The notes below the pieces were generated by a model that saw nothing but the letters and a program-made list of their open reading frames with translations, made no database searches and was not told the origin of the DNA. The translations under genes and the position numbers were made by a program. Below, piece by piece: positions 2,319-11,923 of a stretch of DNA of 29,280 bases. Where the stretch lies: contig DAOVIY010000001.1 in NCBI GenBank assembly GCA_030673525.1, positions 1 through 29,280 of the forward strand. The letters run 5' to 3'. How positions within the stretch are numbered: position 1 is the first letter of the stretch; each line of letters opens with the position of its first letter. The DNA comes from a bacterium. GTDB taxonomy: Bacteria > Patescibacteriota > Minisyncoccia > UBA6257.

Positions 2319-2389
2319 GGGCTCATAGTATAGTGGTAATATACTGCATTCGCATTGCAGAGACGCGAGTTCGATTCTCGCTGAGTCCA
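2319..2389 (+). tRNA. tRNA-Ala (CGC)
   Basis: GGGCTCA...TGAGTCC-A with the G3:U70 Ala identity pair; anticodon arm CTGCA-TTCGCAT-TGCAG. Confidence 0.93.
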
Positions 2390-2396
2390 CAAATAC

Positions 2397-10962: not shown

Positions 10963-11226
10963 ATGCAACAAAAATTTTTAAACAATTTTCCCCCCGAAAT
11001 CAAAAATACAGTTTCTCAATTATATGATACTATTTTAGAACGTTCGCTTATGCGAGCCTATAAAAATTTAGACGATGAGAAAAAAGCAATAATGGCAAAA
11101 ATATTCAATTCTGGTAATGAAAAAGAAAAAAATAATTTCTTAGATAACTATTTAGGAAATTTGCAAGATATTATGATGGAAGAAACAAAAAAGATAGTAA
11201 TGGAAATAAAACAAACAACCCGCTAA
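10963..11226 (+). CDS. Small helical hypothetical protein (resembles CPR DUF5663-type proteins)
   Basis: 87-aa ORF co-oriented with the clpP operon; family resemblance is from memory only. Confidence 0.6.
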   Translation: MQQKFLNNFPPEIKNTVSQLYDTILERSLMRAYKNLDDEKKAIMAKIFNSGNEKEKNNFLDNYLGNLQDIMMEETKKIVMEIKQTTR

Positions 11227-11234
11227 TTAGCGGG
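11219..11234 (-). terminator. Palindrome; probable terminator of the tRNA-Gly transcript
   Basis: CCCGCTAATTAGCGGG perfect palindrome followed on the minus strand by TTGTTTGTTTTATTT. Confidence 0.6.
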
Positions 11235-11249
11235 CCCTTTTAAAACTAA

Positions 11250-11286
11250 AGCGGCAGACCGGACTTGAACCGGCAATTTTCTCGTT
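11250..11286 (-). pseudogene. Orphan tRNA 3' half (positions ~37-73, Gly-type acceptor)
   Basis: AA-CGAGA-AAATT-GCCGG-TTCAAGT-CCGGT-CTGCCGC-T: intact T-arm and C70-G71-C72-U73; no 5' half nearby. Confidence 0.8.
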
Positions 11287-11294
11287 CTTTACAG

Positions 11295-11365
11295 AGCGGG
11301 GTACGAGAATCGAACTCGCGTCTCGACATTGGCAATGTCGTATATTACCACTATACTAACCCCGC
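11295..11365 (-). tRNA. tRNA-Gly (GCC)
   Basis: GCGGGGT...ACCCCGC-T; anticodon arm CGACA-TTGCCAA-TGTCG. Confidence 0.95.
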
Positions 11366-11490
11366 AATATTAAAATTTTATAAGCTTTTACTGGATAAAT
11401 CAATCCAAACTAATATTTTTTCTTTTATTTATCTGCTGTTACATATTATCATACAGATTTCATTGGTCAATCTTTGTCATAATGTAAAGG

Positions 11491-11519
11491 TTGACTTTTA
11501 AAAATTTTGGCTTTATGAT
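11491..11519 (+). promoter_or_regulatory. Sigma70 promoter of dksA-like gene
   Basis: TTGACT-17 nt-TATGAT. Confidence 0.65.
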
Positions 11520-11539: not shown

Positions 11540-11923
11540 ATGGACAAAAAGACTTTTTCTGAATTAAAAAAGAAATTAGAACAAGAACGAACCCTTTTAG
11601 AAAAGGACCTGTTAAAATTTGCCGATAAAGATAAGAAGATATCTAATGATTATGACACCAGATTCCCAAATTTTGGAGGTCGTTCTTCTGCACCTGATGA
11701 AGACGCCAAAGAAGTAGAAATATATGAAAATCTATTGGCCGTAGAATACGCTTTGGAACTTCGACTTAAAGAAGTTAACGAGGCTTTAGAGAAAATTAAA
11801 AAAGATAATTATGGCCATTGTGAAATTTGTAAAAAAGATATTAAATTAGACCGTTTAAAGGCTAACTCTGCGGCTAAAACTTGCATAGCTTGCAATAATA
11901 AAAACAAACCACAGGAGAAATAA
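11540..11923 (+). CDS. TraR/DksA family C4 zinc-finger protein
   Basis: Coiled coil plus ALEKI..YGHCEIC..I..RL.A..AKTCIAC. Confidence 0.9.
   Translation: MDKKTFSELKKKLEQERTLLEKDLLKFADKDKKISNDYDTRFPNFGGRSSAPDEDAKEVEIYENLLAVEYALELRLKEVNEALEKIKKDNYGHCEICKKDIKLDRLKANSAAKTCIACNNKNKPQEK

Follow-up and report, generated by a model that had tools for sequence, protein, structure and literature searches.

An orphan tRNA-Gly 3′ half in a Patescibacteria genome, a probable remnant of a resident gene displaced by a homing-endonuclease-like cassette

Introduction

Partial copies of tRNA genes, the attL/attR duplications, are found at the ends of integrated genomic islands and prophages, and Nanoarchaeum equitans has split tRNA genes. 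Free-standing endonucleases can reportedly act together with an intron in what Zeng, Bonocora and Shub are said to have called 'collaborative homing' in 2009. Group I introns with homing endonucleases occur in the anticodon loops of bacterial tRNA genes (reviewed in PMC3984707). SegB of phage T4, in the account given in PMC2988022 (table 1, with reference to Brok-Volchanskaya 2008), is a free-standing GIY-YIG homing endonuclease that lies in the T4 tRNA cluster and drives inheritance of the region. Co-localization of segB with tRNA genes is presented as widespread across phages (PMC13096335).

Here we analyze a stretch of 29,280 nt (the window), which is the entire contig C16 of a 529 kb assembly (31% GC, 77 contigs, 92.6% complete). 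A first-pass annotation had pointed to an orphan 3′ half of a tRNA-Gly gene within it and had offered three readings: a relic of an older tRNA-Gly that has since been replaced, an att scar, or one half of a split tRNA. We conclude, with a probability of about three in four, that the half is the dead 3′ remnant of a resident tRNA-Gly(GCC) gene that was displaced by a cassette consisting of a homing-endonuclease-like gene and a tRNA gene. We favor displacement because of the homology of the half, the synteny of the locus, the remnant of a linked gene beside it and the series of states seen in relatives. Our literature search found no description, in Patescibacteria, of such tRNA relics or of the HTH and LAGLIDADG-like gene family that is found beside tRNA genes here. 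Below, type A is the working tRNA-Gly(GCC) of the window and type B is the full-length gene of its relatives.

The Orphan tRNA Half

The following features make up the half and the transcript that contains it.

11295–11365, minus strand: working tRNA-Gly(GCC), type A, with no encoded CCA (ARAGORN; Rfam tRNA, 67 bits)
11287–11294, minus strand: 8-nt spacer CTGTAAAG joining the type A tRNA to the relic (an identical spacer precedes the decayed relic in contig L037)
11250–11286, minus strand: orphan 3′ half, tRNA positions 37–73 of the displaced resident tRNA-Gly(GCC), type B (direct sequence reading and homology)
11274–11258, minus strand: T arm of the orphan half, stem GCCGG/CCGGT, loop TTCAAGT
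11257–11251, minus strand: acceptor 3′ strand of the orphan half, CTGCCGC
11250, minus strand: discriminator T of the orphan half
11217–11236, minus strand: intrinsic terminator hairpin, common to the convergent 87-aa ORF, which ends the transcript of tRNA plus relic

The orphan half is 37 nt long (11286 to 11250) and reads, from its 5′ end, AA, the 3′ strand of an anticodon stem (CGAGA), a variable region (AAATT), T stem, T loop, acceptor strand and discriminator. The T stem has 5 bp, four of them Watson-Crick pairs and one a G-U pair. The half starts 8 nt past the tRNA-Gly(GCC) and is separated from the terminator hairpin by a 12-nt spacer. The first-pass description of a 37-nt half at tRNA positions ~37–73, between the tRNA-Gly and the terminator, was accurate on re-reading. 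So was its remark that the half does not copy the 3′ end of the adjacent tRNA, since the two are identical at just 18/37 positions. A strict T-arm scan of the whole assembly returned two T-arms outside annotated tRNAs. The orphan half is one of only these two and is thus far beyond chance. An exact 23-mer of the half had no matches in the metagenome contigs or genome contigs. The variable region AAATT, which is AGGTC in type B, was at one point read as decay; this was dropped, as an intact tRNA-Gly in locus L101 has CGAGA followed by AAATC.

The other orphan T-arm of the assembly is on the 2.6 kb contig C7 of the same assembly (G000), at 702–718. That contig also encodes a second, quite different tRNA-Gly(GCC) with discriminator A (1235–1305), and the assembly has duplicate tRNA-Glu(TTC) and tRNA-Ser(TGA) genes. 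Given these duplicates, the second tRNA-Gly(GCC) may represent contamination or strain mixture (3.7% estimated).

A Conserved Slot With Two Alternative Occupants

The half is identical at 33/37 positions to the 3′ half of type B. In a search of 60 relatives, several genomes gave 37-nt matches at 84–89% identity (E about 6e−8 per genome), and each match that we fetched is the 3′ half of a complete 72-nt tRNA-Gly(GCC) gene whose 5′ end is GCGGCAG. This is exactly the 5′ acceptor strand that the first-pass annotation had predicted for the missing half. Type A and type B are identical at just 47/74 positions.

Two genes frame the site.

10963–11226, plus strand: 87-aa ORF (orf87), left marker of the conserved slot (tblastn synteny, 15+ loci)
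11540–11923, plus strand: DksA/TraR zinc-finger protein gene, right marker of the slot (Pfam PF01258; synteny)

With the neighbors in the window as tblastn queries, the same order was found across the family: a 336-aa ORF, the 87-aa ORF, a tRNA-Gly(GCC) on the opposite strand, the dksA-like gene and an M23 peptidase. The genes near the site are housekeeping genes (ClpP, DksA-like, M23 peptidase, KsgA). The slot between orf87 and the dksA-like gene is occupied by type B in eight relatives from four genera (G001, which is of the same genus, and G008, G015, G018, G020, G022, G023 and G024). It is occupied by type A in G003, G004, G005 and G025, whose copies are 99–100% identical to that of the window, and in six metagenome contigs (L033–L038). 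Whether type A or type B is present, homology of the promoter and terminator flanks extends to the very edges of the tRNA gene, and homologous terminator hairpins sit 3′ of either tRNA in the relatives. Type A followed by a recognizable type B half occurs in one of the 27 species representatives of the family, the genome of the window. The relic is absent from G003, G004 and G005 and from 26/27 family genomes overall. Synteny, full-length homologs in the same slot and a decayed junction in a sister lineage (below) bear out the first-pass suggestion that the half is a relic of an older, since replaced, tRNA-Gly.

The conserved slot also bears on the suggestion that the half is an attR-type scar, left by an integrase-encoding element that recombined in the anticodon loop of a tRNA-Gly. 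Partial tRNA copies beside tRNA genes are the classic mark of integrated islands, and the break here does fall in the anticodon loop. However, both flanking genes are in their ancestral positions, and only about 190 nt are foreign, from the promoter region to the relic. The half repeats no intact tRNA of the genome, and neither an intact type B nor a second copy of the half is present in the assembly. There is no island and no integrase in the window, the only tyrosine recombinase of the assembly being on contig C52. Among the relatives, we did not find one with an integrase-bearing island between the 5′ portion of type B and its 3′ half. We regard an att scar as very improbable and set this part of the first-pass annotation aside.

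Several other sequence features lie near the slot or resemble its occupant. A palindrome, GTCAATTGAC, is located in the divergent promoter region between dksA and the tRNA, both in the window (11465–11497, minus strand) and in loci L002, L003 and L035. In several genomes, its center is interrupted by short inserts that are bounded by inverted repeats (CCCCGTTAGAG... / ...CTCTAACGGGG) and resemble miniature mobile elements; the palindrome of the window carries a 20-nt insert. A 7-nt complement of the spacer CTGTAAAG, ~190 nt upstream (near 11487), was judged to be a chance match. The tRNA-Ala(CGC) gene of the window (2319–2390) has a 55-nt core that is 87% identical to the type A tRNA-Gly(GCC), and one tRNA body may have been recruited for another identity.

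Decayed Relics in Related Lineages

Metagenome contig L037 has type A in the same slot, followed by the identical 8-nt spacer and then by a 37-nt decayed relic. The relic matches that of the window at 23/37 positions without gaps (P about 5e−6 against shuffles). Its T arm is destroyed, and it is followed by the spacer that lies 3′ of type B in G001 and 3′ of type A in G003 and G005. Since the same junction is found in a decayed form in L037, it was inherited and is under no selection. The junctions indicate that one ancestral replacement event produced the arrangement of type A, 8 nt and type B positions 37–73, and that the relic was later eroded in one lineage and removed in others. The removal could plausibly have occurred by deletion between the common CCGCT-C ends, which would bring type A directly against the old downstream flank, as is observed. 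The 8-nt spacer is probably the 3′ trailer of the incoming cassette itself.

A second species of the same genus, G002 (locus L054, G002:C13), has in the same slot an intact HTH and LAGLIDADG-like gene (L054 1501–2154, minus strand), a third variant of tRNA-Gly(GCC) and a decayed relic of type A. This relic retains traces of the T arm and the acceptor strand of type A. It lies 38–56 nt downstream of the tRNA-Gly (L054 1427–1498, minus strand) and before the ancestral terminator. G002 thus represents a second wave of replacement. The slot has been invaded at least twice, and each time the 3′ part of the previous occupant was left behind.

These decayed copies weigh on whether the half could be functional, either as part of a split tRNA joined in trans or as a structured 3′ trailer for processing or stability. 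Its T arm and acceptor strand are intact and it is co-transcribed with the tRNA, and in an assembly that is 92.6% complete the partner could be unassembled. On the other hand, the arrangement is found in 1/27 family genomes, and the sole other copy, that of L037, has a broken T arm. The first-pass annotation had found no 5′ half in the window, and our search of the window agrees. The genome-wide check that it proposed, for a lone 5′ half, likewise found none in the assembly, and no orphan Gly-type 5′ halves exist in any of the related loci (about 160). The half has no promoter of its own and sits in a 3′ trailer. The RNA fold of the region reaches a z-score of just −2.0, driven by the tRNA itself, and nothing was predicted beyond the tRNA, the T-arm hairpin and the terminator. 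Rfam at permissive E-values returned the tRNA and chance matches only for 11150–11450. We find a functional half hardly credible. The split tRNA that the first-pass annotation had mentioned as speculation does not fit a promoterless trailer that is decayed or deleted in relatives. The relic is a discarded 3′ trailer with no function.

A Gene Remnant Upstream of Type A and Its Family

The region upstream of the type A tRNA contains a gene remnant and two promoter-like sites.

11381–11479, minus strand: gene remnant with two in-frame stops, comprising the final 33 codons of an HTH and LAGLIDADG-like gene (profile match)
11375–11403, minus strand: promoter-like site TTGATT-17-TAAAAT, located in the gene remnant and ~10 nt upstream of the tRNA (consensus scan only)
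11470–11443, minus strand: second promoter-like site TTGACC-16-TAATAT (consensus scan only)

The ~100 nt that precede type A show no relationship to the ancestral promoter. In other families of the order, they are conserved with a codon-like pattern in front of type-A-like tRNA-Gly genes, where they are the 3′ end of a gene of 217–220 aa on the strand of the tRNA. In the window, this stump corresponds to profile positions 185–217 of 217 (E 2.5e−9 genome-wide), is the sole copy in the genome and, at the nucleotide level, is 82–85% identical to the 3′ ends of other copies, whether intact or gutted. Its location directly upstream of type A, which the first-pass annotation had missed, points to how the replacement happened. 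Internal deletions of the gene were also found in G025 and L038, where the copy before type A has lost positions 49–170.

The gene belongs to a family of >300 sequence clusters, all from Patescibacteria-type genomes and annotated only as HTH or hypothetical proteins. The family is patchily distributed, being found in 121 of the 301 genomes that make up the order. A genome has up to six copies, and some copies contain stops or deletions. Nearly all of the best 30 loci are directly upstream of a tRNA gene on the same strand. The closest subfamily precedes tRNA-Gly(GCC), and other subfamilies precede tRNA-Ile(TAT) or tRNA-Arg(TCT). In 80 further genomes from many candidate phyla, 76 intact copies are immediately before a tRNA-Gly(GCC), and at the remaining four loci the contig ends before the tRNA would appear. 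The linked tRNA-Gly genes include type-B-like bodies and have very diverse anticodon stems. Because of the type-B-like bodies, a division into a resistant type A and a sensitive type B is an oversimplification. A single possible downstream relic was seen among the 76 intact gene-tRNA-Gly loci; most insertions thus leave either no scar or one that quickly disappears. Between genera, nucleotide identity is 82% for the stump and 100% for the tRNA, and 72–75% for the flanking genes. The cassette is thus just modestly more alike than its flanks, which hints that it may have spread laterally and recently.

Individual loci of the family show further features. In L095, an intact family member lies between two tRNA-Gly(GCC) genes (895–967 and 1867–1942). 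Upstream of it is a type-A-like tRNA gene. The tRNA gene downstream, which is linked to it, has a type-B-like body and a mismatched anticodon stem, and replacement may be under way there. In L051, L052, L054, L058, L060 and L062, the promoter of the gene lies between inverted repeats TTGAAC...GTTCAA, about 50–100 nt upstream of the start; these repeats are candidate operators for autoregulation by the HTH domain. In many lineages (L081–L160), the gene lies between tRNA-Phe(GAA) and tRNA-Gly(GCC) within a Leu-Val-Phe-Gly tRNA cluster.

Family members also occur at other tRNA genes with halves or broken anticodon loops. In G026 (L069, G026:C7, about 2157–2440), a family member is followed by tRNA-Ile(TAT) and, 8 nt on, by an orphan tRNA 3′ half. 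Beyond it, a complete tRNA-Val(GAC) is enclosed by two matching tRNA halves, a 5′ half with acceptor GGGCGAT before it and a 3′ half (ATCGCCC-A-CCA) after it. The enclosing halves have complementary acceptor strands and an 11-bp extended anticodon helix (…CCCGCCCTTT / AAAGGGCGGG…). We did not find an inverted-repeat 'clamp' of this kind around type A in the window. Paralogs of the gene in L066, L070, L071 and L076 are directly upstream of a tRNA-Phe(GAA) with a group I intron in its anticodon loop. The introns of L066 and L070 match Rfam RF00028 with 61–67 bits. None of the interrupted tRNA-Phe(GAA) genes is called by ARAGORN.

The linkage of gene and tRNA has to be weighed against local turnover, in which a second tRNA-Gly(GCC) arose by unaided recombination or duplication, the resident lost its 5′ half and the stump is a mere passenger. 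Such a history is just as compatible with the relic and the synteny. Deletions between short direct repeats occur in reduced genomes, and both tRNAs begin with GCGG and end with CCGCT; the nuclease activity of the linked protein, moreover, is a prediction. Local turnover nevertheless does not account for the position of the stump next to type A, nor for the gutted or intact copies next to the incoming tRNA in G025, L038 and G002. The linkage between the gene and tRNA-Gly is essentially invariant in the 80 genomes, an intact tandem of type A and type B was not found among the sampled relatives, and the break is in the anticodon loop, as in the nested tRNA of G026. We consider unaided local turnover unlikely, and prefer displacement by the cassette.

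Is the Linked Protein a LAGLIDADG Enzyme?

Sequence searches with the linked protein recovered its HTH domain. Pfam gave an N-terminal HTH only, with no LAGLIDADG model matching any of 30 family members. PHROGs returned HTH families only, and the HTH was likewise all that was matched by Foldseek and by a profile-sequence search against the PDB. The remainder of the protein was compared by structure, based on an AF2 model with a pLDDT of 93.7. An exhaustive structural alignment of residues 85–219 had as its top matches the TliVMA intein endonuclease (Z 7.1), I-DmoI (Z 6.5, rmsd 2.6 over 83 residues) and E-DreI (6.0), where Z values of 5.2–7.1 are in the middling range according to the alignment tool's own note. 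Further matches were WhiA, I-Tsp061I, I-Vdi141I and I-MsoI. The first helix of the domain contains a YW-EGD motif in which Y103, W104, E106, G107 and D108 are invariant in 30 sequences, and a conserved acidic residue, as expected for LAGLIDADG enzymes, is present at the close of the motif helix.

A homodimer model of residues 85–219 scored 0.72, compared to 0.00 for the best of three controls; among proteins of known structure, 20/30 solved as homomeric pairs and 1/23 solved as single chains reach this mark. Contacts agreed at 100% between runs, with a partner pLDDT of 86. The predicted interface packs the motif helix (91–106) on its twin, as in single-motif LAGLIDADG dimers. The model supports a putative self-binding of this domain. 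The linked protein is most likely a putative single-motif LAGLIDADG-type homing endonuclease with an added HTH domain.

A Proposed Mechanism of Replacement

Type B would originally have occupied the slot, with the 87-aa ORF on one side and the dksA-like gene on the other. A cassette of the HTH and LAGLIDADG-like gene plus its tightly linked type A tRNA-Gly(GCC) would then have entered the slot and been joined to type B in its anticodon loop, with the junction falling between tRNA positions 36 and 37. Later deletions would have removed the 5′ half of type B and most of the nuclease-like gene. This would leave the unit of the window, in which the 33-codon stump, type A, the 8-nt trailer and the old 3′ half precede the old terminator, the RNA being a single transcript up to that point. 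The states of the window and of L037 could have arisen from one ancestor by two deletions, one from the old promoter into the nuclease gene and the other between the two GCGG starts.

As to how the cassette entered, we infer that the linked protein has nuclease activity and cleaved the resident tDNA at the palindrome of its anticodon stem-loop, and that the cassette was copied into the break during repair. A homodimeric LAGLIDADG enzyme would be expected to prefer a near-palindromic site, and the DNA of an anticodon stem-loop would be such a site. An intron in the anticodon loop, as in the tRNA-Phe(GAA) genes above, would also break a target of this kind. After a double-strand break, the side with the 3′ tail would keep its sequence up to the break, and the start of the relic at position 37 fits a cut in the anticodon loop. 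The nuclease gene, type A and the 8-nt trailer would be copied in and joined by microhomology. The general form of this proposal is a 'self-compensating' homing cassette, in which a dimer cuts the resident tDNA and copies in both the nuclease gene and a cleavage-resistant tRNA of the same anticodon, leaving decaying halves behind. We hold this form of the mechanism only tentatively, with the odds somewhat against it. If true, an essential gene would be destroyed and replaced in one step, and such cassettes would, throughout Patescibacteria, be a general driver of the turnover of tRNA genes and a source of layered tRNA relics.

The slot is found in four states: the resident tRNA, the invader with a fresh relic, the invader with a decayed relic, and the clean invader. 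The sister species adds a second wave. The value of the half, by itself a scrap of pseudogene, is that of a dated snapshot. These states are tied to a large unannotated HTH and LAGLIDADG-like family that adjoins one particular tRNA gene, so that tRNA-locked endonuclease-like genes and layered tRNA relics are linked at one locus in ultra-small bacteria. Type B tDNA versus type A tDNA provides a concrete, testable target. For annotators, the locus is a warning that such halves are not split tRNAs.

Comparison With Known Systems

The att duplications of islands and prophages resemble this locus in that a tRNA fragment lies beside an intact tRNA gene and is broken in a loop region. They differ from it in that no integrase or island is present here, the fragment is from a different, older gene and is not a duplicate of the intact one, and the element carries a complete replacement tRNA with it instead of restoring its target. 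The split tRNAs of Nanoarchaeum equitans are similar in that a half starts at about position 37/38. In contrast, the half described here is from a bacterium and lacks a partner half, leader complementarity, its own promoter and conservation.

Group I introns share the anticodon loop as their entry point, and paralogs of the linked gene do precede intron-bearing tRNA-Phe(GAA) genes. At the tRNA-Gly locus, however, there is no ribozyme, and the host would be rescued by the replacement gene that is carried along, not by splicing. By analogy, T4 SegB is also a free-standing selfish nuclease gene among tRNA genes that promotes a linked tRNA region, with the nuclease activity putative in our case. 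SegB is a GIY-YIG enzyme of a phage, whereas the genes described here are HTH and LAGLIDADG-like and reside in the cellular chromosomes of Patescibacteria. Unlike with SegB, any given subfamily goes with a single tRNA species, and halves of the displaced gene stay behind as relics. By itself, the orphan half is a pseudogene fragment of an ordinary kind; what is new is its context, a variant form of free-standing homing-endonuclease biology.
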